A stretch of 64,000 bases of DNA from Limisphaerales bacterium (GTDB lineage: Bacteria; Verrucomicrobiota; Verrucomicrobiia; Limisphaerales; UBA11358). The DNA is taken from the NCBI GenBank assembly GCA_003134375.1, contig PLAY01000176.1, forward strand, positions 48,254 to 112,253, in the 5' to 3' direction. A model generated the notes under the pieces. That model had not been told where the DNA came from and did not search any database. It saw only the letters and a program-made list of their open reading frames with translations. Shown in pieces: positions 7,192 to 52,137 of the stretch. The position numbers and the translations under genes were made by a program. Within the stretch, counting starts at the first letter, position 1. Every line of letters starts with the position of its first letter.

Positions 7192-7216
7192 GGTAGTTCC
7201 TTTTTAGTTTGAATTT

Positions 7217-9892: not shown

Positions 9893-10249
9893 TTAATTGA
9901 GTGCCGCCTTCGTCTGCGAATCGCCGGGCTTGTTTTCCGTCACCACAATTTCCCGAATCTTCGGCTGATTCTCAGCAATGAGCGGCTGATATTTCGCCGG
10001 CAACGCCATGACGAATGACAGTTCCATCACTTGCATGGCTACTTCAATTCGCCGCAGCGCGTGACCGGAAATCAAAATCTCGTGCGTGGCAAAGACCAAA
10101 CGCAATTTTTGTTCCTTGTCCTCACTGGCGAGTTCGGCAAACGCGAATTGATCAAACGGCAGCAGCACCGATTTCGTCGCGGAAATCTCGACCCGCAGAC
10201 AGCGGGCTTGCGGGTTAGTGGTGAAACATTCGGGTGATTTGGTGCTCAT
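9893..10249 (-). CDS. Hypothetical protein downstream of relaxase; possible distant paralogue of 40737-41159
   Basis: 118-aa ORF overlapping the relaxase stop by 35 nt. It shows an LPFDQFAFAEL...LRLVF...ILISGHAL pattern. Confidence 0.5.
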   Translation of the reverse strand: MSTKSPECFTTNPQARCLRVEISATKSVLLPFDQFAFAELASEDKEQKLRLVFATHEILISGHALRRIEVAMQVMELSFVMALPAKYQPLIAENQPKIREIVVTENKPGDSQTKAALN

Positions 10250-14980: not shown

Positions 14981-15348
14981 GCGCGCCCGACCAATCACCG
15001 CCGCCCGACTTCGACGAGGAGTTTCTGGAGGCCGTCAAGCAATGGCGTGAGCGGAACAAGGTGAGCAGCGATGACGTGGTTCTGTTGCTCCTGGATTTGT
15101 TTCGGATTCACCAAAACCATTGGGATGCGCTGCGTCGCCGTCAGATGCCTTCGCTGGATATGTTTCGCACCGACATCGGATTGATAGGCGCAGCGGTAAA
15201 AACCTTTAAGGAGCAAACCACGGCTCTGATCGAGGCGCTCAAACAAACTCCAGCCGTCACTCAAGCCAGAACCATTTCCTTGGACACGGCTATTATAGCC
15301 GTCATCGCCGCCATGCTCGCGGGTTTTCTCATCGCAAAGGCTTTATGA
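14977..15348 (+). CDS. Hypothetical protein with C-terminal TM helix
   Basis: ATGA overlaps with both neighbouring genes. Start at MSAPDQSPPP. C-terminus is AIIAVIAAMLAGFLIAKAL. Confidence 0.55.
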   Translation: MSAPDQSPPPDFDEEFLEAVKQWRERNKVSSDDVVLLLLDLFRIHQNHWDALRRRQMPSLDMFRTDIGLIGAAVKTFKEQTTALIEALKQTPAVTQARTISLDTAIIAVIAAMLAGFLIAKAL

Positions 15349-34832: not shown

Positions 34833-35180
34833 TTATGTGCCGGTGATCTGGCGCATGGCGTCGTGGAAGGACAGGCCGAGGACTTGGACGTGGAAGTCAA
34901 TAGCATTGCCGGCGAGGTTTCGTTCCGGCCAGCGCCAGTAGCTGTCTTTGACGATAAGACCGGGATAGGCGGGCAAAATAAAATTACCGGCCTCGCACGC
35001 GATGATTTGGAGTCCGCGTTTTTCCAGCAGCGGCACCAGTGGTGCGAGCCGGGCGGTGCGGATTTGCTCGCGCGACCACCGAACATTTTTAAGCGATGGG
35101 TTGGTCACAGTCTTTTCGCCAATGGGGTTGAATGAGGACATGGTTGACCTGTTTGAGATCCACGATGCGGGTCTGGTCAC
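34833..35180 (-). CDS. Small transposon-associated protein (hypothetical)
   Basis: ORF downstream of tniB. The likely start is the GTG at 35108, overlapping the tniB stop. GNAIDFHVQVLGLSFHDAMRQI resembles a primase CHC2-finger region that lacks the cysteines. Confidence 0.4.
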   Translation of the reverse strand: MTRPASWISNRSTMSSFNPIGEKTVTNPSLKNVRWSREQIRTARLAPLVPLLEKRGLQIIACEAGNFILPAYPGLIVKDSYWRWPERNLAGNAIDFHVQVLGLSFHDAMRQITGT

Positions 35181-35889
35181 GGACGGCTTCGATGAGCGCG
35201 CCTAGGCAAAGGTTTCGGGTGCGGCGCAACAGACCTTCGCCGGAACGAACGATCAACGCGAGAGCTTCCGGGGTGAAGGTGTTGTGACCTAGGCCGGCGC
35301 GGTCGAGTTGATCCAAAACAAAGGTTTCCACAGTTTCTGGAGCCAGGCGCGAGAGCAGTGCCGAGTAAGTGACGCGGGATCGGATTTCCTCGTTGATGGA
35401 CAGCGAGAGCGATTGCAGCAGCGGTGGCTGACCAATCAGCACCAAGTTATGCGAGCGCGGGAAGTCCTCGCACAATAACCGGAGTTTGCGCAGGCAGTCC
35501 GGCGGCATGAGGTGGGCGTCGTCAATAATGGGCACGAGCATTTTGCCGGCGCGATGCACGCTGAAGGCTTGCTGCACCAGCAGGCGTTCGCAGTGATGGT
35601 CGCGGCCCTCGAACTCGATTTGAAACGCCTCACACAAAATGCGCAGCGTGTTGTGATAGGTGTGCAAGGTGCGGTTGACGACGGGCGTGATCATGCGTTT
35701 GGGGTCGTGGGTCAGGAGCGTTTGTTTGAGGACGCTTTTGCCGGTGCCGGGTTCGCCGAGCACCAGGCACAAACCGCCCTGCTGGGCATGGACGCGGAGG
35801 ATGTCGAAGATTTCCTGCTGGTGTGGCAGCAGCGTGAGGGCCTCCGGGTCGAAGGGATTGCGTTGCAGGCCGAAGTGGGAGCGGATCAT
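35089..35889 (-). CDS. tniB: AAA+ transposition helper ATPase (TniB/ExeA/MuB-like)
   Basis: Walker A LGEPGTGKS and Walker B VPIIDDAH. Positioned immediately after the DDE transposase. Confidence 0.8.
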   Translation of the reverse strand: MIRSHFGLQRNPFDPEALTLLPHQQEIFDILRVHAQQGGLCLVLGEPGTGKSVLKQTLLTHDPKRMITPVVNRTLHTYHNTLRILCEAFQIEFEGRDHHCERLLVQQAFSVHRAGKMLVPIIDDAHLMPPDCLRKLRLLCEDFPRSHNLVLIGQPPLLQSLSLSINEEIRSRVTYSALLSRLAPETVETFVLDQLDRAGLGHNTFTPEALALIVRSGEGLLRRTRNLCLGALIEAVRDQTRIVDLKQVNHVLIQPHWRKDCDQPIA

Positions 35890-35892
35890 AAA

Positions 35893-37119
35893 TTAAATTT
35901 CAGTTGGCGGGTTGAGCGGTTTTCTGTCGTTGGCGATGGCATTGAGCAAACGCGCTTCGCCCATGCGTTCACCCTTGTAATAAACCACCACGCGATTGAT
36001 CGGCTGCGAACGCTGGAAACGAATGTGGATGGTGCGATCCGGCAGGTGGCGTGGCGCTTCCCAGCGAAGCGATTTGAACGCGAACGTGTTGTCGGCGCGG
36101 ACGTGGCGCTCCTCCTCGACAAAGAACAGCTCGTCGTTGGCCTCATTGGGTGGCAGAAAGCGAACCCACTTGCGATCCAGCGCGTAGCGGTCCAGCGGAC
36201 TCATGCCCAGCACGGAATGCAGTTGGGCGTTGTAATGTTCCTCGACCCACTGCGTGAACTGGCGATTGAGCGCGTCGAGCGAACTCAAATCCAGGTCGCG
36301 CGCTAAAAACTGGTCGCGCACCGTGCGAAAGAACCGCTCGATTTTGCCCTTGGCCGCGCCGTCGCGCACCGGCGCATGGTGCAGCAGGCAGCCGACGCGG
36401 GCGCAGATTTGGAGGATTTCCTTGGAGGAGTAAATGGAGCCGTTGTCCACATAGAGCGCGTGGGGCACGCCGCGTTTGTAAAACGCCGCGCGGAACGATT
36501 CGATGAGCGTGTCCACATTTTCCGCCGGGAAGAACTGACCGTGACAACAGACCCGCGACGCATCATCAAGGAAGGCGATGAGCCGGGTTTGCACGGACAC
36601 CCCGTTGATTTTCACAAACGGGCCGTAAAGCGTGTCCGCCTGCCACATTTCGTTGGCGTGGGCTTTGGCGAACGCCAGGCGGATTTTCTTGCTGGCCTCC
36701 GCGTCTGGCTTGAGCAGCTCAAACTCCCGCACCAGCCGGTTGAAGGTGTTGGGCGCAATCTGGGAACGGGTTATAAGTCCGGCTTCGATGCACAACCGGT
36801 AGAGCAACGCCCGCGCCGGCGTTTTACCGTGGACTTTGGGCAGCACCTTTTGCACGGCCTCCAGCACGTCTTCGATCACCACCTTGCGCCGCTTGCCCTT
36901 GTCGGAACGCGGCTGGTTTTCCATGACGGTCACGCCATGTTTCTGATAACGCGAATACCAGGTCTGGATCGTGCGCCAGGTGAACTGGCGCGGGTGGCCA
37001 TCCTCATCGGTAAAGGTCATCTGGCTGACGGCCCGGATGCGGGCCTGAATCGAATTGCCTTCAGCCATGTCAATGGCCCCAAGCACCCGCATTTTCAAAT
37101 AGGCAGTGGGATTTCGCAT
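35893..37119 (-). CDS. tniA: DDE (rve) transposase, Mu/TniA-like
   Basis: WQADT, LYVDNGSIYSS and AAKGKIERFFRTV (D, D, E). N-terminal HTH region. Confidence 0.85.
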   Translation of the reverse strand: MRNPTAYLKMRVLGAIDMAEGNSIQARIRAVSQMTFTDEDGHPRQFTWRTIQTWYSRYQKHGVTVMENQPRSDKGKRRKVVIEDVLEAVQKVLPKVHGKTPARALLYRLCIEAGLITRSQIAPNTFNRLVREFELLKPDAEASKKIRLAFAKAHANEMWQADTLYGPFVKINGVSVQTRLIAFLDDASRVCCHGQFFPAENVDTLIESFRAAFYKRGVPHALYVDNGSIYSSKEILQICARVGCLLHHAPVRDGAAKGKIERFFRTVRDQFLARDLDLSSLDALNRQFTQWVEEHYNAQLHSVLGMSPLDRYALDRKWVRFLPPNEANDELFFVEEERHVRADNTFAFKSLRWEAPRHLPDRTIHIRFQRSQPINRVVVYYKGERMGEARLLNAIANDRKPLNPPTEI

Positions 37120-38967: not shown

Positions 38968-39879
38968 TTATTCAATTTTGAGGCGGTCACTGGCATTGTC
39001 AGCCATGAGGCAACCCTCCGCGCGTCCGTTGGCGAGCAATGCACCGGCCACGGCGTCGCCCACGAGTTTTTCGGTTGCGTCCCGCATGGGGCGCGCTCCG
39101 AGCTTGGGATGGAAACCCTTTCGCACCAGAAACGGCAAGACCGTTTTGTCCAATTCAAGTTTGTGGCCGCGCGAGGTGAGGAACTCAACTTCCCGCGACA
39201 AAAACTTTTCGGCAATCTCCAATTGATGCTCATAGCTCAACCGGTTGAACACGAGCTTCTCGGTGATGCGCGCGAAAATTTCCGGGCGCAGGGCTTGTTG
39301 TGCGCGTGACAGAACGTGCCGTTCCAATGTCGCGTCATTGGAATGTTGCAGGCTCATCAGTTCGGCAGAGCCGATGTTGGAAGTCAGCCAGATATAAAAT
39401 CCACTGAAGTCCAGTGTCTCCCCCGTCGCCACGGTGATGCGGGCTGCGTCGAGCAGTTGCAGCATAATGTCCAGCACGCGCGGATGCGCTTTTTCGGCTT
39501 CATCAAACAATAACGATCCTTCGGCGGCACGTTCACGCATCGCCCCCAAATAACCCGTCTCGCCCAGCTTCGCGCCCAACAACAAACCAAGTGATTCCTG
39601 CGTTTGAAATTCCGACATATCGAACCGGAATAATTTTTCTGCGCCAAAGATTTGCCTTGTCAGCACCACGACGGTTTCGGTTTTGCCGACACCGGTGGGA
39701 CCGAGCAGCAGAAAACTTCCGCGCGGACGACCCGGTTTGGTAAGGCTGAATTCCCCCCGTTGCACCACGGAGACCACGCGCGGCAGAACTTGGTTCTGCC
39801 CGCGAATTTCCGTCCGTAATACGCCATCCAGTTTGCGGAGGCGTTCGATTTTCTCACCGTCAATAGTTGTCGTGTTCAT
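38968..39879 (-). CDS. Stand-alone Clp/Hsp100 D2-type AAA+ ATPase
   Basis: LLLGPTGVGKTE (Walker A), LLFDEAEKAH (Walker B) and LGARPMRD (sensor 2), plus a D2-small-like C-terminus. Start at the ATG at 39879. Confidence 0.75.
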   Translation of the reverse strand: MNTTTIDGEKIERLRKLDGVLRTEIRGQNQVLPRVVSVVQRGEFSLTKPGRPRGSFLLLGPTGVGKTETVVVLTRQIFGAEKLFRFDMSEFQTQESLGLLLGAKLGETGYLGAMRERAAEGSLLFDEAEKAHPRVLDIMLQLLDAARITVATGETLDFSGFYIWLTSNIGSAELMSLQHSNDATLERHVLSRAQQALRPEIFARITEKLVFNRLSYEHQLEIAEKFLSREVEFLTSRGHKLELDKTVLPFLVRKGFHPKLGARPMRDATEKLVGDAVAGALLANGRAEGCLMADNASDRLKIE

Positions 39880-39904
39880 GTCCCGCCATGATGCCTGAAA
39901 GCAT

Positions 39905-39933
39905 TTTTCATCCTGTGCGATTTCCGCACAAGG
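39905..39933. promoter_or_regulatory. Second copy of the palindromic box (TTTTCATCCTGTGCGATTTCCGCACAAGG) between the Clp-like gene and the T4SS operon
   Basis: The 18-nt TTTTCATCCTGTGCGATT is identical to 13050-13067, followed by (C/T)CCGCACA. Confidence 0.6.
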
Positions 39934-40006
39934 CGCTTTTGAAAACATGAGAAGATGACCCCGTGTTCGGCGGAAGACCCCGCCGGGAAAATTAAACAAC
40001 AATGAT

Positions 40007-40372
40007 ATGAAAAAAATACTGGCTCAAAAAATCGTTCCTAAAATCCGCTCGCGGCTGCGCCCGTTCCTCACCGTCGCGGCCTTGTTCGCACTCAATACGC
40101 TGCCCGCCCTGGCTCAAGGGACGGGCTTCAGTTCCACCGACTTGAAAACCGGCATCAGCAACAGCCTTGCCGTAATCATGATGTTCGGCTTCGTCCTCGG
40201 CATCTCCGCTGTCATCTACGGCGGCTTTGCCATCCGTCGCGGCGATGTTGACCAGGGCAAGATGTCCATCATCGGCGGGGCCATCATCGCGGCGGCTCCG
40301 GCGGTGGTTTATGCCTTCTATAAAATCTTCGGCCTTGATGCCAACAGCGCCGTCGGCGTCGGCAACTTTTAG
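40007..40372 (+). CDS. virB2: T4SS pilin (VirB2/TrbC-like)
   Basis: Long signal peptide ending ALAQG, then two hydrophobic helices. First gene of the T4SS operon. Confidence 0.6.
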   Translation: MKKILAQKIVPKIRSRLRPFLTVAALFALNTLPALAQGTGFSSTDLKTGISNSLAVIMMFGFVLGISAVIYGGFAIRRGDVDQGKMSIIGGAIIAAAPAVVYAFYKIFGLDANSAVGVGNF

Positions 40373-40404
40373 CCAGCCAAACATAATCCAAATCCACGCC
40401 CACC

Positions 40405-40740
40405 ATGAGCGCCAAAAGTGAACTTCGCCTGACCGACACCAATGCCGCGTCCGACTCCAAAGGCCGGACGTGGGGTTTGGAAGGGGGTCTCTTTTGGTGG
40501 CTCATTGGCGGCATCGGCGCGGGCATCATTGTGTTCTTTGTTTTGCTCGTCCCCATGAATTCATCGCTGACCTTATCGTTCGTCGTCGCCCTCGTGCCGG
40601 TCTCGATCTGCCTCGCCTATATCTTTGCGTTGCGGCAGGGCAAACCGCCCGGTTACGACCGCGACTGTTTTGAATACCTGATGACGGGACGCGGCTTCAG
40701 TCCCGATGTTGACCGTTCATGTTCCCATCCACTTTTATGA
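40405..40740 (+). CDS. virB3: VirB3-like small inner-membrane protein
   Basis: Two TM helices (LFWWLIGGIGAGIIVFFVLLV and LSFVVALVPVSICLAYIFAL). Positioned between the pilin and VirB4. Confidence 0.55.
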   Translation: MSAKSELRLTDTNAASDSKGRTWGLEGGLFWWLIGGIGAGIIVFFVLLVPMNSSLTLSFVVALVPVSICLAYIFALRQGKPPGYDRDCFEYLMTGRGFSPDVDRSCSHPLL

Positions 40741-41159
40741 AATCTGAAAAATCACATCACCCCAAACACAAGCGCGAGTTCGGCGGCTGTGTTGAATTCA
40801 TCCCGACGCTGCCGGATTACACCGAGTTCATTGATGCTCACCGGATATGGTGTTTTCCGATCAACCACCTGACGCACTTTGTCCTGCAAGAGAATCCCAA
40901 CAGCAGCGGCCAGAAAACTTTGCCGCCCGACCAGCTCGTCCTGGTTTATCCGCCGGCAACCGTCGTCCTCAAAGGCTGGCGGCTGGAACTTCTGCTTGGC
41001 CCGCTGGTGAATGGGCGTGTGGCGCGCGTTCACGCCGAGAAACATCTCGGTGCGTTGATTCTCGAAGAAGCGTGGGTCTCCGAGATTCGCGTTCTGCTGC
41101 GCGACAACCTCATTCGGGACCGCGAAAAATTTGAAGACTTAATTTCACAACAATCATGA
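40737..41159 (+). CDS. Hypothetical T4SS-operon protein
   Basis: ATGA overlaps with both neighbouring genes. Possible distant paralogue of 9893-10249. Confidence 0.5.
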   Translation: MKSEKSHHPKHKREFGGCVEFIPTLPDYTEFIDAHRIWCFPINHLTHFVLQENPNSSGQKTLPPDQLVLVYPPATVVLKGWRLELLLGPLVNGRVARVHAEKHLGALILEEAWVSEIRVLLRDNLIRDREKFEDLISQQS

Positions 41160-41437
41160 ATCCCGGCGAACTTCAGGCAATTGAAAGCCAGCGGCAGGCG
41201 TTGCTTGGCCAGCTCACCGCCGCCGAAACCGCCTTGCGTGCCGGTCTGCATAACACACGCGGCTTCGGTGACACCGCCCGCGCGCACATGGAGCGGGCAA
41301 GGGCGCACCTCTGCGAAGCCTACATCGCCATCAACGAGAGCAAGTCTGTCCGCACCGTCCAGCAACTTGTGGATGACGTGAACCGTGTCCAGCAGGTGAT
41401 GGACGATGTGCAGCGGCGCAAATCCCAACGCATCTGA
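41156..41437 (+). CDS. Small helical hypothetical protein
   Basis: 93-aa ORF translationally coupled within the operon. Confidence 0.5.
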   Translation: MNPGELQAIESQRQALLGQLTAAETALRAGLHNTRGFGDTARAHMERARAHLCEAYIAINESKSVRTVQQLVDDVNRVQQVMDDVQRRKSQRI

Positions 41438-41440: not shown

Positions 41441-44194
41441 ATGTTTGAACGTCCACCCAACGGTTTTTTTGTGCGCGATTTGATGGTGTTCAACCATCTG
41501 CGGCGCGGCGGTTATGTCTCCAAGGGGTTTGTCTTTGAACCGCCCGACCTCACCAACAGTCCCATCGCCGACCTGAACGAATTTCAAGAACAACTCTGTT
41601 TGTTGCTCGCTTCGCTGCACGAAAACCAGCGGTTGCAGGTTCAATACTTTTCCGACTCGGATTACAAAACCGAACTGCTCCGGTATCAGCAGGAGACGGA
41701 ACGGTTTGAAAATGTCTGGACGAAGCGTTCGCGCAACGAACGGTTCGCACGCTACTGGCAGGCGATGACCGAACGCAAACTCCGGCGGCAGCGCGTGATC
41801 CTTTATGTGTCCCGCTCGTTGGAAAACACGCCCCGGACGCTCACCTCCAATAGCGCGCTGCGCGAGTATTACCTGACCATGCTCGACCAGTTGGAAACGG
41901 AGTTCAGCCACGTTCACCATTTGTTAAAGGAGATTTTCGCCAGTGCCGGGACGCGCGTGCTGCCCATGAGCGACCTCGACCACTTCAAGCATTGCAAAAA
42001 TTTTCTCAATCCGTCCCTAGCCGACCGCTTTGATTTTGATGCGGCCAGTGATTTTCAACCCGAACTTTCGATTCAGGAAAATTGCTGGCACAGCGAAGGC
42101 AACGGCCAGAGTGATTTCGGGTTTTTCATGGATGGACATTATCACTCCGTCATCGCGCTCACGCGCTGGCCGCGCACGACCTATCCCGGCATCATCCAAC
42201 GCCTCACCAATCTGCGGCTGTTGGACTACGCCATCACGGTCAATGTTGATCCGCTCCCCATCACCCAGGAAATCAACAAGGAGGAAAAAGAGCATGACCG
42301 CGTAGCCGGCGACTACGCCAGTGAAAAGAAAATCTCGCTGCTCACGGTAATGGAAAAGAAGCAGAAAAAAATTCATGCGCTGATGCAGGGACAGACCATT
42401 CCGTTCAATGCGCTGTTTGTGATTCGGGTTTGGGACAAGTCGAAGGACGGTTTGAACGCGAAAGCCAGCGCCATCAAGAACGCCATCAACTCGATGAATT
42501 CGGCGCAGTATTTTGAAAGCAACCTGCCCACCACGTCCAAAAGCCTTTTCTTCCAGACCTGGCCGGGCTGGACGTGGGGACGTTATGAGCATCGCAAACT
42601 TTATTCGGAACATCGTTATCTGGCCGATATGCTGCCTGTCACCAGCACATTCACCGGCCATCTGGCAACCGCCGAGGCCATCTACGATGGCCCGGCAAAC
42701 AATCTTATCGGTGTCGAAACTTTCTCCGGCTCAAAGGACAATCAATCTCCCCAGCACGCCGTGTTGTTGGGAATGTCGGGCGCGGGCAAATCTGTGACCG
42801 TTTGCGACCTGCTTTCGCAGACCGAAGGTTATTTCGCCTACACCGTCATCATTGAAGAAGGTTTGTCGTATGGCATCTACACACAGACCGTCGAACCCGG
42901 TGCGCGGCCCATCATCATTCATCCCGATGGCGACCTCACCATAAACTATTTGGACACCAAAGGACTGCCGCTGACCTCCGACCATTTGTCCGCTTCAACG
43001 GCACTTGTTGCCCGGATGATCGGCACGTCGAGTCAGGAAGATAAACAAATGCTCCGGCAGGCGCAGATCGCCAAGTATTTGAATTTGCTTTACGAGGATT
43101 CGTTTCAGGACTGGCAGAAGAAGCGTTACGGTCAGTTGCTTGACATCGCGCGTCACGCGCTCGCGTTGCAGAAATTCCGCGCCGAACGGATGCCGCCGGG
43201 CGCGACGAGCCTCGAAACTTTTGCGGACTTCAGAGACTTGGCGGGGTCAGGACTCATATCGTCCACCGCAGAGCCACGCTTCAATGAATGGGGACGGGAT
43301 TATCTCGCCCAATTCGACGAAGGAACGGTTCTGAAATTCCTAAAAGACCCCAAGACCAGCCGCGAAGTCCGCAATCTCGCTTTCGCCTATTTCACGCCGG
43401 AAGAATTCCCGACGCACCGGATGTTGCAGGAATTGATGATGCTCGATCCGGTCGGTTCGGAGCGTGAACAGATCGTCGAAATCGCCACCCTGATTCTGCC
43501 CTGGTGTCGGGACGGCAACTACGGCTGCTTGTTCGACGGCACGAGCAATCTTTCGCTTACCGGTAAGATTGCCCACTTTGAGTTGGGCTACATCCCGGAA
43601 TCTGCCAAGGAACTGAAGGCGGCGGCGGGTTTCCTCATCACCAACCACGCGCGCAAGCACATCATCACGCTGCCGCGCGCATTGCGGAAACGGAACGTGT
43701 ATGAGGAAGTCGCCCGCTTCCTTGACATTCCCGGTGGGCAGGAAATCGTCCAAGAGAGCTACGCTCAATTACGGAAATTCAATTGCTGGAACATTTCCAT
43801 CGTGCAGCAATACGCCCGGTTCAAACAATCGCGCATCCGCTCCGCCGTGTTCGGCAATTCGCGCCAGTTTTTCATCATGCGCCAGAATGACCGCGCGGAT
43901 CTGGAGGACATGGCGCAGGACATCGCGCTGCCCGAAGTCACCAAACACGCGATTATGAATTACCCGCTGCCCGACCATCAATCGGGACAGAAGTATTCGC
44001 CGTTCACTTATTTTCACACCGACTCCGGCAGAAATCTTTGCGGCACGGTTCACAACGTCTCATCGCGTGAAATGCTCTATTGCAGTTCATCCAGCGGCGA
44101 GCATTTCGATAAACGCGCCCGCGAACTGCGCCAGAGTGCCAACATCGTCGAGGGCATTATCGCCCACGCAAACCCGCAAAAGGAGGAAGCATGA
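41441..44194 (+). CDS. virB4: T4SS ATPase VirB4/TrbE family
   Basis: 917 aa with Walker A LLGMSGAGKSV. Size and operon position are typical. Confidence 0.9.
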   Translation: MFERPPNGFFVRDLMVFNHLRRGGYVSKGFVFEPPDLTNSPIADLNEFQEQLCLLLASLHENQRLQVQYFSDSDYKTELLRYQQETERFENVWTKRSRNERFARYWQAMTERKLRRQRVILYVSRSLENTPRTLTSNSALREYYLTMLDQLETEFSHVHHLLKEIFASAGTRVLPMSDLDHFKHCKNFLNPSLADRFDFDAASDFQPELSIQENCWHSEGNGQSDFGFFMDGHYHSVIALTRWPRTTYPGIIQRLTNLRLLDYAITVNVDPLPITQEINKEEKEHDRVAGDYASEKKISLLTVMEKKQKKIHALMQGQTIPFNALFVIRVWDKSKDGLNAKASAIKNAINSMNSAQYFESNLPTTSKSLFFQTWPGWTWGRYEHRKLYSEHRYLADMLPVTSTFTGHLATAEAIYDGPANNLIGVETFSGSKDNQSPQHAVLLGMSGAGKSVTVCDLLSQTEGYFAYTVIIEEGLSYGIYTQTVEPGARPIIIHPDGDLTINYLDTKGLPLTSDHLSASTALVARMIGTSSQEDKQMLRQAQIAKYLNLLYEDSFQDWQKKRYGQLLDIARHALALQKFRAERMPPGATSLETFADFRDLAGSGLISSTAEPRFNEWGRDYLAQFDEGTVLKFLKDPKTSREVRNLAFAYFTPEEFPTHRMLQELMMLDPVGSEREQIVEIATLILPWCRDGNYGCLFDGTSNLSLTGKIAHFELGYIPESAKELKAAAGFLITNHARKHIITLPRALRKRNVYEEVARFLDIPGGQEIVQESYAQLRKFNCWNISIVQQYARFKQSRIRSAVFGNSRQFFIMRQNDRADLEDMAQDIALPEVTKHAIMNYPLPDHQSGQKYSPFTYFHTDSGRNLCGTVHNVSSREMLYCSSSSGEHFDKRARELRQSANIVEGIIAHANPQKEEA

Positions 44195-45048
44195 AAGAAT
44201 TGCACATCCTCAATCTCGGCGCGGGCGTCCAGTCCACGACCCTTTACCTGATGTTTTTGCGCGGTGTTCTCCAGCCGCAGATTGACTACGCCATCTTCGC
44301 CGATACCGGCGAGGAACCCACACCCGTTTATCGGCATCTGGAATGGCTGCAATCCTTGAACGGCCCGCGCATCTTGGTGCGTTCCATCGGCAGGCTTGGG
44401 GAAGATTTGAAGCACGGACGCAATTCCACCGGCCAGCGGTTTGCCAGCATTCCCGCCTACACCACGGACGAGCCGGGTTCGCCCAAGGGGATGATTCGCC
44501 GCCAATGCACCAAGGAATACAAGCTGGATGTCATTGAACAGACCATCCGCCACGAAATCGTCGGCCTTAAACCCCGCCAATGGTTTCCCCGCGATGAAGT
44601 CCATGTTCGGCAATACCTCGGTATCAGTTTCGACGAGGCCGGACGCGCCGCGCGTGTGCGGCTGCGCTTCGCGGAAGTTCCTTGGGCAACGCCGTTGTTT
44701 CCGCTCATCGAACGCCAAATCACCCGCGCCATGTGTCAGCAACGGCTGAAAGCCTTTGGTGTCCCCCATGAAGTCCCGCGCTCGGCGTGCGTATTTTGTC
44801 CCTACCGTTCCAACGACGAATGGCGCTGGCTGCGGGACAATGATCCGACCGGTTTTCAACGTGCCGTTGAAATTGACGTGGCGTTGCGAACGCCCGGCAA
44901 TGTCGTCAACCGGAACCTTGACCAGAAACTATATGTGCATCGCTCGTGCGTGCCGCTGGCCGAGGCGTTCATCGAGAAAAAGGAATCATTCCGAGACCAG
45001 ACGTTCATGGGTTTTTACCAAGAATGCAACGGCCTGTGCGGAAACTAA
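44191..45048 (+). CDS. PAPS-reductase / PP-loop ATP-pyrophosphatase family protein embedded in the T4SS operon
   Basis: LHILNLGAGVQSTTLYLM (SGGxDS-like PP-loop position), IFADTGEEP and RRQCTKEYKLDVIE. ATGA overlap with the virB4 stop. Confidence 0.6.
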   Translation: MKELHILNLGAGVQSTTLYLMFLRGVLQPQIDYAIFADTGEEPTPVYRHLEWLQSLNGPRILVRSIGRLGEDLKHGRNSTGQRFASIPAYTTDEPGSPKGMIRRQCTKEYKLDVIEQTIRHEIVGLKPRQWFPRDEVHVRQYLGISFDEAGRAARVRLRFAEVPWATPLFPLIERQITRAMCQQRLKAFGVPHEVPRSACVFCPYRSNDEWRWLRDNDPTGFQRAVEIDVALRTPGNVVNRNLDQKLYVHRSCVPLAEAFIEKKESFRDQTFMGFYQECNGLCGN

Positions 45049-45061: not shown

Positions 45062-45478
45062 ATGAAAAAATTATTATTCATCGTTCCTCTTGCTTGTGCC
45101 GCGTGTTTGTTCACCGGCTGCGCCGCCGTGACCCGAACTGCCACTGATGTCGGCCTGGGCGCGGGCGGCGCGGCCCTCGGCGGCGAACTATCCCACAACA
45201 ATCCGATGGCCATCGTTGGCGGCGCGGCGGGCGGCGCTTTGCTTGGCGAGGGACTCCACGCCGCCAACGGCAAACTGAACGACCAGTCTTATCAGTCCGG
45301 CTACGACAAAGGCCGCAGTGATGCGGTGAAGCAGCAGTATTGGCTTTACGTTTCGTTGCAGCAGGCCAGAGCCGGTGACAATGGCCGGGTCCGGCTCTAC
45401 GAAGTTCATTTGCCGGAGCAAGTAATTGACGGCGTGATTTTCCAGCCCACCACCCAATTTCTCCGCATCGAGCAGTAA
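45062..45478 (+). CDS. Lipoprotein (VirB7/TrbH-position) with Gly-rich segment
   Basis: Lipobox LFTGC followed by a glycine-zipper-like GLGAGGAALGG...VGGAAGGALLGEG. Confidence 0.6.
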   Translation: MKKLLFIVPLACAACLFTGCAAVTRTATDVGLGAGGAALGGELSHNNPMAIVGGAAGGALLGEGLHAANGKLNDQSYQSGYDKGRSDAVKQQYWLYVSLQQARAGDNGRVRLYEVHLPEQVIDGVIFQPTTQFLRIEQ

Positions 45479-45550: not shown

Positions 45551-46351
45551 ATGAAAAAGTTAATCGCAGTAATCGCAATCGCCCTGCCGCTGGCATTCTC
45601 CGCCCGCGCACAGTGGATCGTGTATGACCCGACCATGAACGTGGAACAAATTCTCGCCGAAGCCGAGAGCATCGCCAAATACGTCACGATGATTGACAAC
45701 CAGGTGCAGCAAATCAACACGCTCACCAGCCAGTTGAGCGAGTTTAAGAATTACGAAAGTTTGTTCGGCAACCCGTCCCAAGTGGTGCTGTCAATGGTGC
45801 CTGCCCTCGACTCGGATTTGCAGAGCCTTGAGCCGGGTAAAAACCTCGAAAATCTGGTGTCAAGCGCCGACGGCAATTATGCACTGACCTACAATGATTC
45901 AGGCATCTATGCCACAGTAGGCGTCAGTTTCCAGACACCGGGCGGCCAGACCATCCAGCGACCCGCCGACCAATACAAACCGTTTGCGGCAATCAATGAC
46001 ACGGCCAACAACTATGTCACGGTTGCCGACAACGCGGCGCAACGGCGCGCGACCATCAAGGATCAAATCGCGCAGACGACCCAGCAACTCCAGAACGCCA
46101 CCACGGATGCCGAGGTGCAGAAGTTGCACGGCGTCCTCACCAGTCTGAACGGCGACCTTGCCAGCACCGATGACGAGGTGAATCAAGCCGCGTCATCGGC
46201 AATGGTTCAGGACATCCAGAACCGGAACGACCAGCAGAAACAAATTCAGGCGTTGACCGAGCAGCAGAACGCCGAGTTCGAGGAGTCCGTCAGCAACTAC
46301 ACGGCGAAGTTCCAGTTGCTCAATGCGCCGGTGGTCTTCCCAACCCCGTAA
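45551..46351 (+). CDS. virB5: VirB5/TrbJ-like protein
   Basis: Signal peptide, then QWIVYDPTMNVEQILAEAESIAKYVTMIDNQVQQINTLTSQL (TrbJ-like pattern). Confidence 0.6.
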   Translation: MKKLIAVIAIALPLAFSARAQWIVYDPTMNVEQILAEAESIAKYVTMIDNQVQQINTLTSQLSEFKNYESLFGNPSQVVLSMVPALDSDLQSLEPGKNLENLVSSADGNYALTYNDSGIYATVGVSFQTPGGQTIQRPADQYKPFAAINDTANNYVTVADNAAQRRATIKDQIAQTTQQLQNATTDAEVQKLHGVLTSLNGDLASTDDEVNQAASSAMVQDIQNRNDQQKQIQALTEQQNAEFEESVSNYTAKFQLLNAPVVFPTP

Positions 46352-46370
46352 CCCTCAACCTGCGTTAATC

Positions 46371-47438
46371 ATGGCCACGTTCGACAGCATCTTCCCCACA
46401 TTCCTCGCCAAATGTGGTGAACTCCACACGTTGTTGTTGAGCGTGGCCTTCGCCCTTTTCATCGTCGGCGTCATCGTTACGGTGATGCACCATTCCTCGC
46501 ACGATGCCATTCTGCATCTGCTCCTGCGTCTGTTGTTGCTCACGTCCTTGCTCGTGTTTCTGCCTGCTTGGGGCAATACCCTGCAAAATCTGCTGCAAAC
46601 TTCCATCCTCTCCGGCTTGGGCGTTGACCCGGCCAATGTGTATCAGCAGTTCAATCAATTGCTTGTCATCAAACGCGATCCGGCCACGACCACATCTTGG
46701 TGGAATGTCATGTCGCAGCTCCACAATTTCACCACCGACTTGATCATCTCCGCCGTTCTCTGGCTCGTCGGCGAGTTCGCCTCGTTGATGATGTTTTGGG
46801 CTTACATCTTTCAGACAATCATTCTCAATCTCGGCTACGCGCTCTCGCCCTTGCTCATCGGTTTCATGGCAATTCCGGCGTTGAAGCACACCGGCAACCG
46901 CTACCTCATGAATCTTGTCGGCGTTTTGCTCTGGCCGCTGGGCTGGGCGCTCGCCGCGCTCGTCACCCAGGGCATTCTCGACTTTATGACCGACCCCAGC
47001 TTTGAATATATTGACCCGACTTCCACGCTGCCCGATCTGCAAAAAACCATCGGCGTCGCCGTCGTCGGCTTCTGGATTATTTTCAGCACCGTTGCCGCAC
47101 CAGTCATTATCCAGAACGTCATCGCGCACGGCATTCAGCCCGGAGGCCCGTTGCTCGCGGGCGGTGTCAGCAGTTTTCTCCAGACCGCCGCCACCACTGC
47201 GGGCGCAGCCGCGACCGCTTCCACCGCTGGTATGCCGGCAGTGACCGCTGGCGCGGCGGGCATGGCCGCGCTGTTAAGCACCATGTCGTCTGCCGCCAAC
47301 ATGGGCAGCGCGGGCGCCATCATCATCGCCGGTTCCGGCCTGCCGCCGCGCTCCGCACGCGGTCGGCCCGGCGACGACATCACCGGCAACAAGGCCGTCC
47401 GCGAACTCATCGCCAAATCCAAACCCAATTATTACTGA
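46371..47438 (+). CDS. virB6: VirB6/TrbL-like polytopic membrane protein
   Basis: At least 6 hydrophobic helices and an Ala/Gly-rich C-terminus. Start at MATFDSIFP. Confidence 0.6.
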   Translation: MATFDSIFPTFLAKCGELHTLLLSVAFALFIVGVIVTVMHHSSHDAILHLLLRLLLLTSLLVFLPAWGNTLQNLLQTSILSGLGVDPANVYQQFNQLLVIKRDPATTTSWWNVMSQLHNFTTDLIISAVLWLVGEFASLMMFWAYIFQTIILNLGYALSPLLIGFMAIPALKHTGNRYLMNLVGVLLWPLGWALAALVTQGILDFMTDPSFEYIDPTSTLPDLQKTIGVAVVGFWIIFSTVAAPVIIQNVIAHGIQPGGPLLAGGVSSFLQTAATTAGAAATASTAGMPAVTAGAAGMAALLSTMSSAANMGSAGAIIIAGSGLPPRSARGRPGDDITGNKAVRELIAKSKPNYY

Positions 47439-47441
47439 CCT

Positions 47442-48107
47442 ATGGAAACATCTGACTTGAAAACCACGCCAACGAATTCTGCTTCGCCTTCAATGGTGGC
47501 CGTGCGCAAGCACTTTGATCCTACCCGCCTTTTGGTCCAGCGCGACCGCCTGCCGTGGTTCTGGTTTTTCTTCACCATTGCCGTGTTGCTGCTGTCGGCC
47601 ATTGACCGTTACCACATCGTTTCACAGTTCAAGCAGCGCGAGCGCGTCGTCATCATTGATCCCGCCGGAACTTATTATTTAAGTCCGTTGCTTCAATTTT
47701 CGGAGGCCAAAGAGTTGCACGTTCAACAGGCCGAGTTGGCGACGCTCGCATTTCTCGAACGCAGTCCCAAAGATTTTGACAATCCCGATTTGCTCAAATT
47801 GGTGTTTCTCAAATCTGCGCTGGCCAAGGCGCAGGACGAACGTATCAGCGAGTCCGTCGAATTTCGTTCCAAGCAACTCCACCAGAAAGCTGAAATTGGC
47901 CGCATTGACATTCTCGCCACGCGCGACAACGAAGTGCTGGCCGCCGTCACCGGCCAGATCATCCGCAGCGGCATATTCCAGGACAAGGCGTTCACCGAGG
48001 CGTTTCCGTTCACGCTCCGGTTACGCTTGGTTCGCAACCCCAACATGGCGTTGAACGGACGCTTCCCAACCGCAGTAGGAGACTTCAAATATGAAATCAA
48101 TCGCTAA
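47442..48107 (+). CDS. virB8: VirB8-like protein
   Basis: Bitopic: a short cytoplasmic N-terminus, one TM helix (WFWFFFTIAVLLLSAI) and a ~150-aa periplasmic domain. Operon position fits. Confidence 0.5.
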   Translation: METSDLKTTPTNSASPSMVAVRKHFDPTRLLVQRDRLPWFWFFFTIAVLLLSAIDRYHIVSQFKQRERVVIIDPAGTYYLSPLLQFSEAKELHVQQAELATLAFLERSPKDFDNPDLLKLVFLKSALAKAQDERISESVEFRSKQLHQKAEIGRIDILATRDNEVLAAVTGQIIRSGIFQDKAFTEAFPFTLRLRLVRNPNMALNGRFPTAVGDFKYEINR

Positions 48108-49005
48108 TCTATTATTACTCACCGTCACGGTGCTCACTGCCACGGTTGCGCTGGCCGATTCACCGGCCATCCATCGTGTTCTGCTCGACGACCACACGGT
48201 TGTATCCGTGCCGGTTGCGACCAACCGCGTGACCACCATCAGTTTTCCCGGCCCGATTGAAGCCATTGACGGCGCGGGGTTCACGGTGGATGGAAAAACT
48301 CCGGGGCAATTCCAACTGGCTCATGTCAAAGGCTCGACGTTTCTTTCCGTGCGCGCCCTCACTGGCAGGGCCGCCGGCAACCTGAATGTCCGCTGGAACA
48401 ATTGCACTTACGTTTTCGAGTTGTCGGCCAGCGACACGCCGGCACTGTCACTCATCATGGAATCGCCGCCCGCGCCGGAGGAGTTGGGTGCAGGCCGTGC
48501 GCCCGAAGTCAGCCCGCTAAAACTTTTGGCGTTGCTCGACAAGGCGAAGGCGTTTCCGCTGTTAAAATCGCAACAGCCGGAAAGTGTCGCCGATGTCGGA
48601 TTCACCACCTATGACGGCAAGCCGCTGGTCAGCGACTTCAACGACTACGAAATCCAGATTGAACAGTCATTCCGGTTCAACGCCGAGGACACGCTGGTTT
48701 TTCGTGTCGGCATCACCAACAAGACCGGCACGCCCTTGATTTATCAGCCCGACAGTTTCGCGTTGCGCGCGGGCGACCGGCTTTATCCCCAATCCATCAG
48801 CGACAGCGACGGCCACGTCCCGCCCAATGGCCGCAGCATCGTTTATTTTGCCGTCACCGGCACGCCGGACGGCGGACGCAATGAGTTGTCTCTGAAAAAC
48901 CAATTCACCGTGTTGGTGCAACGACTGTCGCCGCCACCGCCGCCCTCAATCATCGTCACCAATGTTCCGGTGCGTCCCATCCGTTCACCCAAAGGCCAGC
49001 CATGA
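48091..49005 (+). CDS. virB9: VirB9/TrbG-like protein
   Basis: Signal peptide. NRVTTISFPGPIEAIDG...GNLNVRWNNCTYVFEL resembles the VirB9 N-domain pattern. Confidence 0.6.
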   Translation: MKSIANLLLLTVTVLTATVALADSPAIHRVLLDDHTVVSVPVATNRVTTISFPGPIEAIDGAGFTVDGKTPGQFQLAHVKGSTFLSVRALTGRAAGNLNVRWNNCTYVFELSASDTPALSLIMESPPAPEELGAGRAPEVSPLKLLALLDKAKAFPLLKSQQPESVADVGFTTYDGKPLVSDFNDYEIQIEQSFRFNAEDTLVFRVGITNKTGTPLIYQPDSFALRAGDRLYPQSISDSDGHVPPNGRSIVYFAVTGTPDGGRNELSLKNQFTVLVQRLSPPPPPSIIVTNVPVRPIRSPKGQP

Positions 49006-50084
49006 AACCACGAGATTTCCTCAATTTTTTCAAGACCAAGAGCGGCAGATTGATTGCCTTTGGTGGTTTGTTTGCGGCGGCGCTCATTATTTTCAGCGTT
49101 GTCCGCAAGCACCACCAGGCTCCCGAAGACGCGGCTTCGGCGGCGCCACTTGGCACCAACACCGTTGGCGGCAAGCCCCAGGTGGTGCAGTCGGTCGTGC
49201 GACCGATGACGGCTTTCCATCCGCCCGCAGCCAAACCGGAACCGGCTTCAGCTTCGTCCACCGCGTCATCGGCAACCTCGTCAGGTTTCCCCAACGCATC
49301 GCCACAACCGTTGCCGGTTGTTCCCGCGAACCAATTGCCAACCCTCTCGCCGATCAGTTTGTTTTCAGATAGCACGGCGGGAGTTGCCGCCCAAAAAAAG
49401 TTGAGCGCCGCGTATGCCCCGTTTGGCCGGTTGATTTCTTGCGAGACGGTCATCACGGTGGATTCGTCTTCCATGCAGACACCCATCATCGGCCTTGTCA
49501 CCGAGGATGTTTATCACGCGGGCAAACTCATCATTCCCGCTGGCACCGAGGTTCATGGCACGGCCAAAACCGACCATCAACGCGAACGCATTGCCAGCGG
49601 CAGCAGTTGGACATTGGTTTGGCAGAACGGTGAAGAAATGCAAATCAAGGCCATCGCGCTTGACCGAGAATTTGAAAACAACACCAATCAAACCGGTTGG
49701 AGCATCACGGACGGCAGCGCCGGGTTGCGCGGTGAACTCATCAAGTCGGACAGTCTCGCGGAGATAAAATTGTTCGCCGCCACGTTCCTTTCCGGCGCGG
49801 CGGGTGCGCTGACCGAAAAACAGCAGACCATCTTTGGCCCCATCAACAGTCCCACGCTCAACAACGCGCCGTTTGCGGGCGCGCAGGATGTTCTAAAAAT
49901 CTACGCGCAGCAAATCTCCGATTCGATTCAGAAGGACGGGTTTTACATCCGTGTGCCGAGTGGAAAACAGTTTTACCTCTACGTCCTGCAAACCCTGGAC
50001 CGCGCCGATGCCTCCGTCGGCGGCGCGGCCATCCCGGTCGCACCAGAAATAGATGAACCAACCAAAACCACATCAACACCATGA
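49002..50084 (+). CDS. virB10: VirB10/TrbI-like protein
   Basis: N-terminal TM helix, a Pro/Ala-rich linker, and a C-terminal IIGLVTEDVYHAGKLIIPAGTEVHG...DGSAGLRGE pattern. Confidence 0.7.
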   Translation: MKPRDFLNFFKTKSGRLIAFGGLFAAALIIFSVVRKHHQAPEDAASAAPLGTNTVGGKPQVVQSVVRPMTAFHPPAAKPEPASASSTASSATSSGFPNASPQPLPVVPANQLPTLSPISLFSDSTAGVAAQKKLSAAYAPFGRLISCETVITVDSSSMQTPIIGLVTEDVYHAGKLIIPAGTEVHGTAKTDHQRERIASGSSWTLVWQNGEEMQIKAIALDREFENNTNQTGWSITDGSAGLRGELIKSDSLAEIKLFAATFLSGAAGALTEKQQTIFGPINSPTLNNAPFAGAQDVLKIYAQQISDSIQKDGFYIRVPSGKQFYLYVLQTLDRADASVGGAAIPVAPEIDEPTKTTSTP

Positions 50085-50659
50085 AAATGCTCCGCTTTAT
50101 TCCACTCCTGTTTTTGACGGCGTGTTCGACCGCGCCCAAGCTGACGCTGTTTCCGCAGCCACCGCTCGCGGACACGGATAATTCCAATGTCCGTTATCCC
50201 GAAGTGATTCATGCCTATCACGTCGGGCGCTATGCCGACCCGAATGACGGTCTGGTGATGCACGAGCAGCACGTCGTTTATCGCGTCGAGGAAAACACGC
50301 GCTGGGATTTGCATCCCGCCACCATTGGGGGCAACGCATTTTCCCCCGCAGCACCGTCATCTCACGACGCGGCGTTCAGTCCGGTGCCAGTCAACGATGC
50401 GATTCTGGCCGAGGTCAATTCGCAGCGGTTCGCCACCACTCAAATCATGGTGCAAGCCCGCACTTTGTCGGCGGCACTGATGCAGTTTCAAAGCGCGTTG
50501 CAACAGACCCAAACGAATTTGCAGCAGACGGCGGCGTTGCGCGCAACGGTGGGCGAAATGAAGCAGCGGCTCGCCGCGCTCGAAGCCGCGCAGAGCCAGC
50601 AACCGCCATTTGCAACCGCCACGACCACCAACGAACCGGCTGATCCGTTGAGTCCCTAA
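50081..50659 (+). CDS. T4SS-associated lipoprotein with coiled coil
   Basis: Lipobox LFLTACS. ATGA overlap with virB10. Confidence 0.55.
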   Translation: MKMLRFIPLLFLTACSTAPKLTLFPQPPLADTDNSNVRYPEVIHAYHVGRYADPNDGLVMHEQHVVYRVEENTRWDLHPATIGGNAFSPAAPSSHDAAFSPVPVNDAILAEVNSQRFATTQIMVQARTLSAALMQFQSALQQTQTNLQQTAALRATVGEMKQRLAALEAAQSQQPPFATATTTNEPADPLSP

Positions 50660-51486: not shown

Positions 51487-51837
51487 ATGCTCCCCCGGAA
51501 TCCCATTGGCCGGAACGTTTCCCGTTTGCGTTCCGAAAAGAACTGGTCACAGCAGGATCTGGCGACGCAGTTGCAATGCAAGGGAGTGGATGTCAGCCGG
51601 GACATGCTCGCCCGTGTTGAGCTGGGCATTGCCAAGGCGAGCGTTGATTTTCTCCTCGGTGTTCAAAAGGTTTTTTGCCTGCCCATCATCCGGTTTTTCT
51701 CAAAACAGATTCAAGACTTGGACGCAATGTATGCCAAGCCTGTCGCCGACCAACCGCCCGCTCCCGCAAAGAAACCCCGGCGAAAAAACTCCCGTCGCAA
51801 ATGCCAAAAGTTGACAAAAAAGCGACCGCCGATATAG
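51487..51837 (+). CDS. XRE-family HTH regulator with basic C-terminal tail
   Basis: IGRNVSRLRSEKNWSQQDLATQLQCKGVDVSRDMLARVELG. Confidence 0.75.
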   Translation: MLPRNPIGRNVSRLRSEKNWSQQDLATQLQCKGVDVSRDMLARVELGIAKASVDFLLGVQKVFCLPIIRFFSKQIQDLDAMYAKPVADQPPAPAKKPRRKNSRRKCQKLTKKRPPI

Positions 51838-51876
51838 ATAACCAGTTGGAACTTTTTGGTTCCAACCGCACATACC

Positions 51877-52137
51877 ATGAACATGCTGACCCAATACGGA
51901 CGAATGGCCGAGAAACACTGGCGCGAACATTGCCCGCACCTGGTGCGCGACTTGGAGGCGAAAGGACAGTTGCACACGATGTTGCTGGAGGCCGAGGAGA
52001 AGACGAAGGACGAGATGATCGAACTGACGCAGCAGTTCACCAAACAGGGGCTGACTCCGCAGCAGGCGCACGACCGCGCCTGGGAAATGGTGCGGGAGGA
52101 ATACATCCTGCTGCCGCCCGAAATGGTGACGAGTTAG
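51877..52137 (+). CDS. TnpV-like small protein
   Basis: LTQYGRMAEKHWREHCPHLVRDLEAKGQLHTMLLEAEE resembles the TnpV family (..GKYGRM...YLKEH.P..Y..L...G.L...L), from memory. Confidence 0.5.
   Translation: MNMLTQYGRMAEKHWREHCPHLVRDLEAKGQLHTMLLEAEEKTKDEMIELTQQFTKQGLTPQQAHDRAWEMVREEYILLPPEMVTS

Follow-up and report, generated by a model that had tools for sequence, protein, structure and literature searches.

SspD is the sulfur-inserting subunit of the SspABCD system of DNA phosphorothioation, a protein resembling 3′-phosphoadenosine-5′-phosphosulfate (PAPS) reductases. For the related proteins DndC and BrxP, an action on the DNA backbone by way of an iron-sulfur (Fe-S) cluster has been proposed (PMC12914056, PMC12839542), and in the bacteriophage exclusion (BREX) system of type 4 the synthesis of phosphorothioate is reported to need a PAPS-domain protein plus an NTPase (PMC12914056). 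A 2026 survey finds genes for PAPS reductases both in phage operons regulated by Aca and in variable regions known as hot spots of anti-defence; with reference to Piel et al. it mentions a phage PAPS reductase as promoting escape from Dnd (PMC13551039). According to the preprint of the latter work, a sensitive Vibrio phage plated fully on a host with Dnd after two genes had been moved into it, and one of the two encodes a PAPS-Dam fusion of 479 aa with the PAPS domain at residues 4–175 (Vibrio phage 44E38.1 p0018; bioRxiv 10.1101/2021.05.05.442762). In the literature we found no report of an enzyme of the PAPS-reductase type within an operon for conjugation or for a type IV secretion system (T4SS). 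Here we analyze such a case, a 285-aa protein named P0001 that is encoded inside the T4SS operon of an integrative conjugative element from a Limisphaerales bacterium, a peat-soil Verrucomicrobium (GCA_003134375.1, contig PLAY01000176.1, positions 48,254–112,253 of the forward strand; this whole stretch of 64,000 nt is termed the window, and its own numbering is used below).

The enzyme gene and its junction with virB4

The open reading frame (ORF) at 44191–45048 (+) encodes 285 aa without internal stops and carries the motifs LNLGAGVQST, ADTGEEP, and QCTKEYK at residues 7–16, 37–43, and 105–111, all three as read in a preliminary description of this DNA. The start codon overlaps the virB4 stop as ATGA, and a lipoprotein gene and VirB-like genes follow downstream, again as described there; in addition, an AAGGAGG site for the enzyme gene falls inside the 3′ end of virB4. 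The features of this junction are as follows.

41441–44194 (+): VirB4-like T4SS ATPase, 917 aa; PF19044 TraG P-loop above cut-off, with relatives 29–99% identical across the phylum
44180–44194 (+): coupling junction, with AAGGAGG at 44180–44186 and ATG at 44191–44193 overlapping the virB4 stop TGA at 44192–44194 (ATGA)
44191–45048 (+): P0001, 285-aa SspD-like or phage-type PAPS-reductase-like enzyme, an orphan; from the ORF, its translation, profiles, and an AlphaFold2 (AF2) model
45062–45478 (+): 138-aa lipoprotein with lipobox LFTGC, read from the sequence; directly after virB4 in most related operons

The same gene placement is found in 16 related operons, most of which keep an AAGGAGG-type site and the ATG. 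The 11 alleles of the main group are all exactly 858 nt long, without indels, and their median pairwise ratio of nonsynonymous to synonymous substitution rates (dN/dS) is 0.066, as against 0.068 for VirB4 of the same loci. The shared placement, the constant length, and the low dN/dS argue that neither the ORF nor its position is due to chance; the gene is under purifying selection and functional where it is kept. Since it is translationally coupled to virB4, the enzyme would be made only together with the mating apparatus, that is, in transfer-competent donors.

DNA alignment of operons with and without the gene delimits a cassette of about 870 nt, which lies precisely between the virB4 stop codon and the spacer ahead of the lipoprotein gene. 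In the gene-less operons virB4 stops a few codons sooner, there is no AAGGAGG site, and the lipoprotein ATG follows after a short, A-rich spacer; in the gene-bearing operons virB4 is longer by the codons that carry the ribosome-binding site, and a similar spacer follows the enzyme stop codon. The boundaries of the cassette are clean.

Distribution across related T4SS operons

The enzyme gene is accessory cargo and not a part of the T4SS, a conclusion that we hold with high confidence. The genome of origin contains two T4SS operons and one copy of the enzyme gene: in the second operon (L036), whose VirB4 is 93% identical, virB4 and the lipoprotein gene are 22 bp apart and the enzyme gene is absent. 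We compared 80 loci from species-representative genomes, mostly metagenome-assembled genomes (MAGs) of Verrucomicrobiota, with VirB4 79–99% identical to that of the window; four of them are cut off, which leaves 76 evaluable operons. The gene is present in 13 of these and absent from 63, in which the lipoprotein gene lies 16–108 bp past virB4. More remotely, 26 genomes with VirB4 29–66% identical, from a sample of 300 genomes of the phylum, contain no enzyme homologue at E ≤1e-10. On the VirB4 tree (MAFFT, FastTree) the gene is limited to one subclade, where at least four gains or losses are required, and among the contexts examined the family was seen within a T4SS operon only in one verrucomicrobial T4SS lineage.

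This distribution bears on two statements of the preliminary description. That the enzyme is not a canonical T4SS part holds, given its absence from L036 and from 63 of 76 close relatives. The proposal that the enzyme is a domesticated structural or regulatory subunit of the T4SS has to be rejected, since a paralogous operon and the same 63 relatives do without it. This last explanation, which we consider close to refuted, could call on the tight translational coupling to virB4, on a purifying selection equal to that of VirB4, and on the grouping of the T4SS-linked alleles in one clade; besides the pattern of absence and the repeated gains or losses, it is opposed by the conservation of catalytic-type motifs and by close homologues in phages and on plasmids that have no T4SS genes nearby.

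The junction can hold other genes. In more distant operons (VirB4 45–52% identical) it is occupied, in L015–L019, by an unrelated protein of 205–226 aa, whose gene overlaps the virB4 stop in L015 (L015:4191-4871, L017:4199-4858, L019:4195-4812; likewise in L016 and L018), and in L012 (4107-4928) by a secreted protein of 273 aa with coiled coils. The 205–226-aa protein is without a match in Pfam or in the Atlas, and an Atlas feature search with the 219-aa occupant gave no usable match. The junction between virB4 and the lipoprotein gene is a variable cargo slot.

Several side observations were made on these operons. Six of them have an extra ORF between the enzyme and lipoprotein genes, which encodes a helical, charged, and conserved protein of 80–87 aa (L053:7640-7882, L056:7588-7851, L057:7595-7837, L060:7594-7836, L063:7589-7840, and L065:7589-7831) and is lacking in the window. 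The MAG Verrucomicrobiota SPRUCE 652 carries three such T4SS operons (L046 and L053 on JBEKXN010000003.1, L066 on JBEKXN010000007.1), each with an enzyme allele, 99%, 92%, and 42% identical to that of the window. Ten contigs with VirB4 84–92% identical are filed under Bifidobacterium, Pseudomonadales, Nitrospira, Caldisericales, and Saccharimonadales MAGs (L051, L054, L069, L075, L078, L086, L097, L099, L120, and L124); they probably represent a mis-binned mobile element, a very wide host range being less likely. The VirB4 matches in L015–L020 and L038, which come from several genomes of one family, each contain a single TGA or TAA in frame, close to their N-terminus; it probably marks the border to a small gene upstream and is not due to recoding.

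Family, fold, and conserved residues of P0001

P0001 matches the phage family PHROG_424, annotated as PAPS reductase, over residues 2–284 (E 4.9e-32), and its AF2 model (pLDDT 91) has a PP-loop fold in which only the last 15 residues are poor (<50). Profile and model thus bear out the superfamily given in the preliminary description, and assign P0001 to the PAPS-reductase branch of the adenine-nucleotide alpha-hydrolase (PP-loop) superfamily. The PADLOC model of SspD is matched as well (E 2e-14). Scans with Pfam and NCBIfam returned no family (for NCBIfam none at E ≤0.1), the PAPS_reduct and CysH/APS (adenosine 5′-phosphosulfate) models being unmatched. The family is large, with more than 7300 matches in a word-indexed search and 4251 representatives at 50% identity (E ≤1e-3), and it is found on at least 506 viral contigs, in 52 phage records, and in 183 plasmid records, 110 of them from Agrobacterium and others from bacteria that include Rhizobium. 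It has no Pfam model, and no test of its function was found in the literature.

Structure comparison with VIA-align gave PAPS reductase 7rge as the best match, with a Z score of 11.8, followed by a plateau at Z 9–11 made up of GMP synthetase, LarE, NcsA/TtuA, Cap9, YcfA, and CysH. Foldseek matches in the PDB are weak, with TM scores of 0.35–0.48; structures of DndC and SspD are absent from both the Foldseek and the VIA-align lists, which does not mean that the folds differ. The look-alikes in the ESM Atlas (TM 0.85–0.90) are 80–93% viral. A single-sequence search of the PDB with P0001 found nothing real, and a profile search a sole match, to the 270-aa chain C of 21fy, named PptA (E 5e-4, residues 139–230). 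The sequence of PptA includes a block reading GF(T)xEExxR as well as a CxxC motif; no relevant paper on it was found in the literature.

The conserved elements of P0001 were located by comparison of 46 family members.

44218–44235 (+): variant nucleotide loop G10-A-G-V-Q-S15, which takes the place of the SGGKDS of SspD and DndC
44302–44310 (+): D38-T39-G40 within FADTGxEP, nearly invariant in the 46 members; aligns with the DTG of SspD and of CysH/APS reductases
44506–44508 (+): Cys106 in RRQCTxEYK, conserved in at least 90%; aligns with the Cys of SspD RWCT and with the CC pair of APS reductases
44788–44799 (+): C200-x-x-C203 within SACVFCPY, conserved in at least 90% and present in all T4SS-linked alleles; aligns with SspD RSGCFFC
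45025–45039 (+): C-terminal C279-x-G-x-C283 in a flexible tail modelled at pLDDT <50; C279, G281, and C283 invariant

Gly10, Gly12, and Ser15 of the nucleotide loop are invariant in the 46 members, and in P0001 a Gln replaces the Asp of SGGxDS. P0001 thus lacks the canonical PP-loop signature SGGxDS, as do the CysH-type members of the PAPS-reductase branch; the PP-loop-like N-terminus of the preliminary description stands for the superfamily, but not as a canonical loop, GAGVQS being found where SspD and DndC read SGGKDS. Cys182 is likewise conserved in at least 90% of the family. From this pattern, P0001 is predicted to bind a [4Fe-4S] cluster through three or four of the conserved cysteines and to have, in addition, a reactive tail.

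Two unusual relatives were noted. P0130, a family member of 601 aa, twice the usual length, matches LAGLIDADG weakly in its central part and probably contains an intein; conserved active-site regions are where inteins are often inserted. A 540-aa fusion of DUF6339 with the PAPS-reductase-like domain of this family, common to at least five cluster representatives, ends a module of three genes (643, 295, and 543 aa; L041:3189-7632, L042:714-5157) that lies within a CRISPR-Cas locus, between cas3, together with an RHH-ParE pair, and cas6e/cas1; cas7 and cas5 were not called there. Nothing relevant on DUF6339 was found in the literature.

Comparison with SspD, DndC, BrxP, and CysH

By hhalign, the family was compared with reference alignments that were built, with sequences from the same phylum, for true SspD (12 sequences), DndC (12 sequences), and CysH/APS reductases. 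By far the strongest match is that to SspD (99.4%, E 5e-22, 208 columns), which spans all of the conserved blocks, ahead of CysH (83.6%, E 8e-6, 146 columns) and of DndC (2.3%, E 0.021, 95 columns). P0001 and SspD have in common the motifs DTG, R-x-C-T...K, GI(S/R)xDExxR, fPL, RS-x-C-x-F-C, and EW...L...P...A, a size of about 270–285 aa, and a C-terminal Cys pair, which in the true SspD examined takes the form of a terminal CxxC; the PADLOC SspD model is matched by 45 of 46 family members. Yet P0001 reaches only 49–52 bits on this model, where full-length true SspD score 290–379 and DndC 43–45; it reads GAGVQS in place of the SGGKDS of 12/12 SspD and 12/12 DndC; and it is encoded by a lone gene on a mobile element. 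The possibility that the SspD match is a generic one of the superfamily was tried and set aside: housekeeping CysH match PADLOC BrxP and not SspD, so the preference is real, although the score remains far below that of membership. On these comparisons SspD is the nearest characterised family of P0001, which is itself not an SspD, and the family is placed as a sister group of SspD with an altered nucleotide loop.

DndC and BrxP belong to the same superfamily, but P0001 leaves the DndC model TIGR03183 unmatched and gives no match to BrxP, which is matched by one of the 46 family members (E 7e-4). They also differ in architecture: DndC has 430–630 aa and the BrxP model 779 positions with a DUF4007 fusion, with NTPase partners, whereas P0001 is a single-domain protein of 285 aa. 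No brx genes occur among the called genes of the locus. The preliminary description had named DndC and the PAPS component of BREX as members of the enzyme family; this is right for the superfamily, the nearest relative being SspD. Its proposed placement among the CysH, DndC, BrxP, and phage clades by profile and structure likewise came out in favor of the phage family PHROG_424, near SspD, with DndC and BrxP set aside and CysH weak.

With CysH/APS reductases P0001 shares the fold (Z 9.9–11.8), the aligned DTG, cluster Cys (Cys106 with the CC pair), and Lys111, a loop other than SGGxDS, and Cys in the C-terminal tail. It differs from them in falling below all curated CysH/APS/PAPS models, in the DNA-related gene context of its family, and in its preference for PADLOC SspD over BrxP, the reverse of that of CysH. 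In a PF01507 scan of the genome of origin the matches were confined to cysH and cysD, two housekeeping genes on contig 24; since the host has its own cysH and cysD, the enzyme is unneeded for sulfate assimilation.

To the proteins of named phages of the PHROG_424 family P0001 is 24–39% identical over the full length; for the plasmid homologues the identity is 39–43% in the 25 records listed. Examples are Geobacillus phage vB_GthS_PK5.1 gp43, Thermus phage P23-77, Salisaeta phage SSIP-1, Pelagibacter phage HTVC034P, and prophages of M. abscessus, and, of the plasmids, Agrobacterium pAt and Roseobacter pTB1. Each PHROG_424 member inspected stands alone, as one gene in a variable, DNA-related region, and P0001 differs from them in being coupled inside a T4SS operon.

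Alleles and origin of the T4SS-linked copies

The same slot also holds divergent alleles, 63% (L005) and 42% (L066/L068) identical to that of the window, next to VirB4 that are 87–88% identical. Both keep G10, G12, S15, D38-T39-G40, K111, C182, C200, C203, C279, and C283; in the L066 allele the equivalent of Cys106 is displaced by two residues, and loop residue 14 is Q, S, or P across the T4SS-linked alleles. In the IQ-TREE phylogeny the T4SS-linked alleles form one clade within the phage and plasmid family (Shimodaira–Hasegawa-like approximate likelihood-ratio test, SH-aLRT, 99), the 42% allele being on a long branch (1.06), and the approximately unbiased (AU) test does not reject one T4SS-linked clade (p 0.79). 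The simplest history consistent with this tree would be a single capture from the phage and plasmid pool, then repeated loss or exchange between operons, with very fast divergence in one line. An independent second capture of the L066/L068 allele was considered, since FastTree had put it far away; after IQ-TREE and the AU test no such claim is made.

Gene contexts of the wider family

The neighbours that recur in 78 viral loci, many of them from related phages so that the counts are not independent, are genes for primase, helicase, and DNA polymerase and one for a small protein resembling kinases; a protein cluster of DNA methyltransferases is represented in 22/78, immediately upstream in 11, and a Mom-like modification gene occurs in 6/78. 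In a Bryobacterales prophage the homologue lies between the large terminase gene and ParB-methylase genes, and in Geobacillus phage PK5.1 between an HNH endonuclease gene and an SSB gene. Two conjugative plasmids give similar contexts: on an Agrobacterium pAt plasmid the start of the homologue overlaps the stop of an ArdC-N (DUF1738) gene, and on Roseobacter pTB1 the homologue follows a large ParB gene. Another homologue stands in a chromosomal island bordered by an ArdC gene, about 3 kb from a cassette for RNA repair that comprises Thg1, RNA ligase, and kinase genes.

The Vibrio phage protein 44E38.1 p0018 offers a parallel, as a PAPS-reductase-domain protein of a mobile element beside a DNA methylase. 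It differs from P0001 in being fused to Dam, and its anti-Dnd effect was shown for two genes jointly; it is probably a precedent from another branch and not a family member.

Possible function

The proximity to SspD and the DNA-centred contexts together argue that the enzyme is directed at nucleic acid and serves where mobile elements and host defences are in conflict, and not in sulfur metabolism. As a whole, the explanation that we favor, an optional cargo enzyme of phage type which is expressed in the donor and modifies nucleic acid for anti-defence, has about an even chance of being correct; its functional core, nucleic-acid modification serving anti-defence, is put forward somewhat more tentatively, from protein comparison and gene context. 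Presumably confined to transfer-competent donor cells by its coupling to virB4, the enzyme would act on nucleic acid through sulfur transfer or another nucleotide-dependent modification. Its likeliest substrate would be the element's own DNA, single-stranded or nicked, before transfer, and the DNA so marked would escape the defences of the recipient on entry. Anti-restriction or a marking of the transferred DNA, as raised in the preliminary description, would fit the gene contexts of the wider family and the published anti-Dnd effect of a different phage PAPS-domain protein. The virB4-coupled copy adds an argument of timing, as expression would be tied to transfer, and the sister operons with and without the gene constitute a natural presence/absence experiment. 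Viromics studies often label the family cysH, a sulfur-metabolism gene; if the anti-defence role is true, the enzyme would stand for a new class of counter-defence enzymes of conjugative elements and phages, and counts of viral sulfur auxiliary metabolic genes would need correcting.

Several observations weigh against this explanation. The loop of P0001 is without the Lys and Asp of SGGKDS, so ATP-pyrophosphatase chemistry of the SspD/DndC type is not assured, and the structure matches, which span Z 9.3–11.8 across the PP-loop superfamily, do not allow a substrate to be named. A search of the genome of origin (92.8% complete) for DUF4007, that is SspB, was negative, while in a positive control a DUF4007 gene was found 3.5–4.5 kb from sspD in 4/4 genomes with true SspD. 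The ORFs scanned in the operon and in the window include none for a cysteine desulfurase, a nickase, or an ATPase of the SspC/DndD type, SspA and SspC not having been searched genome-wide. The NTPase reported to be needed in BREX type 4 counts against a lone enzyme making phosphorothioate (PMC12914056). A tblastn search of the phage collection with P0001 gave no match to 44E38.1 p0018 at E ≤1e-3, the presence of that phage in the collection being unchecked. The neighbour counts of the viral loci carry less weight for coming from related phages, and no biochemical or genetic datum on the subfamily was found.

A narrower version would make P0001 an orphan SspD-like Fe-S enzyme that acts in the donor and marks the transferred strand with sulfur, as a phosphorothioate or by thiolation of a base, with the relaxase nick and the unwound strand in place of the SspB nickase and the SspC ATPase. 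We regard it as quite unlikely; were it true, it would constitute a one-protein, conjugation-coupled pathway of DNA modification, and thousands of phage and plasmid homologues would do likewise on replicating or packaged DNA. It is also rather unlikely that the enzyme is a factor for anti-defence or takeover that does not modify DNA, such as an RNA or tRNA thiolase resembling TtuA/NcsA, an enzyme acting on a nucleotide or small molecule, or an altered mimic of SspD that blocks phosphorothioate-based defences by binding their partners. The [4Fe-4S] tRNA thiolases NcsA and TtuA, together with LarE, YcfA, and Cap9, do lie within about 1.5 Z of the top structure match, the degenerate loop, with its variable residue 14 in the T4SS alleles, would suit a changed or lost adenylation step, and one homologue is found close to an RNA-repair cassette. 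DNA methyltransferases, Mom-like proteins, and DNA replication genes are nevertheless the recurrent neighbours, and G10, G12, S15, DTG, and every Cys are strongly conserved, which speaks for an active site rather than a mere mimic.

A true APS or PAPS reductase, that is, the product of an auxiliary metabolic gene which raises the supply of sulfite and cysteine in the carrier cell, is improbable. The hhalign match to CysH/APS reductases with its aligned DTG, Cys106, and Lys111, the rank of PAPS reductase as the best single structure match, a loop that lacks the Lys and Asp of the ATP-pyrophosphatases like the CysH loop, and an E-C motif in the C-terminal tail recalling the ECG(L/I)H of CysH are outweighed by the unmatched curated models (Pfam PAPS_reduct, NCBIfam CysH/APS), the far stronger match to SspD, the cysH and cysD that the host already has, and phage and plasmid neighbours that are genes of DNA replication, modification, and anti-restriction and not of sulfur metabolism; moreover, one would hardly expect a metabolic gene to be coupled to virB4. 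Finally, the gene might be cargo for the protection of the host or for addiction, for instance the modification half of a system like Dnd, Ssp, or BREX-4. Integrative and conjugative elements often carry defence cargo, the nearest named families (SspD, BrxP, and DndC) are subunits of defence systems, and the window also holds ADP-ribosylglycohydrolase/cREC and SPFH genes. This is very improbable all the same for a single gene that sits inside the transfer operon and not in a cargo region, that has no NTPase, DUF4007, desulfurase, or restriction partner adjacent in the contexts looked at, and whose family is mostly viral.

The conjugative element

According to a Pfam scan of its ORFs, the window holds a complete conjugative element with an integrase, a relaxase, a coupling protein, and a T4SS operon, in agreement with the conjugative setting assigned to it in the preliminary description. 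Apart from the junction genes listed above, its main features are as follows.

2423–3622 (+): tyrosine integrase (PF00589, E 3e-19)
10215–13034 (-): TrwC-type relaxase-helicase (PF08751, E 2e-83, plus AAA_30)
15345–16820 (+): type IV coupling protein, TrwB/VirD4-like (PF10412, E 1e-13)
40007–41437 (+): upstream T4SS genes for a TrbC-like pilin (40007–40372, weak PF04956 TrbC match) and for proteins of 111, 146, and 93 aa; synteny kept in relatives
45551–50659 (+): six downstream T4SS genes (Pfam scan; synteny in L001–L005)
51675–56939 (+): 1754-aa fusion of a methyltransferase and an SNF2/ResIII helicase (weak Pfam matches to Methyltransf_11/25, ResIII, SNF2, and Helicase_C)

The six downstream genes encode a DUF4141 protein in the VirB5 position (266 aa), a TrbL/VirB6-like protein (371 aa, weak match), a 221-aa protein, a CagX/VirB9-like protein (304 aa, weak match), TrbI/VirB10 (360 aa, solid match, E 5e-16), and a 192-aa lipoprotein. 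The scanned genes of the T4SS operon do not include one for an ATPase of the VirB11 type. The 1754-aa methyltransferase-helicase fusion, homologues of which have WH_1, DUF8437, and Helicase_dom matches, is a candidate for a second DNA-modifying cargo gene of the element.

Some further genes of the window were recorded. A cargo block at 5168–9680 (-) consists of two ADP-ribosylglycohydrolase genes, one of them fused to a cREC_REC receiver, an SPFH/Band-7 gene, and a gene for a 336-aa protein, and may be a defence or counter-defence module. A ClpB-like AAA+ ATPase (AAA_2 plus ClpB_D2-small) is encoded at 38968–40002 (-), divergently from the T4SS operon, a position that is kept in L003 and L005. 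Between the cargo region and the T4SS operon lies an IS21-type pair, made up of an rve transposase and an AAA_22 helper (35089–37119, -), and upstream of this pair an ORF of 3364 aa (19994–30088, +), whose homologue in L003 has RHS and Calx-beta matches.

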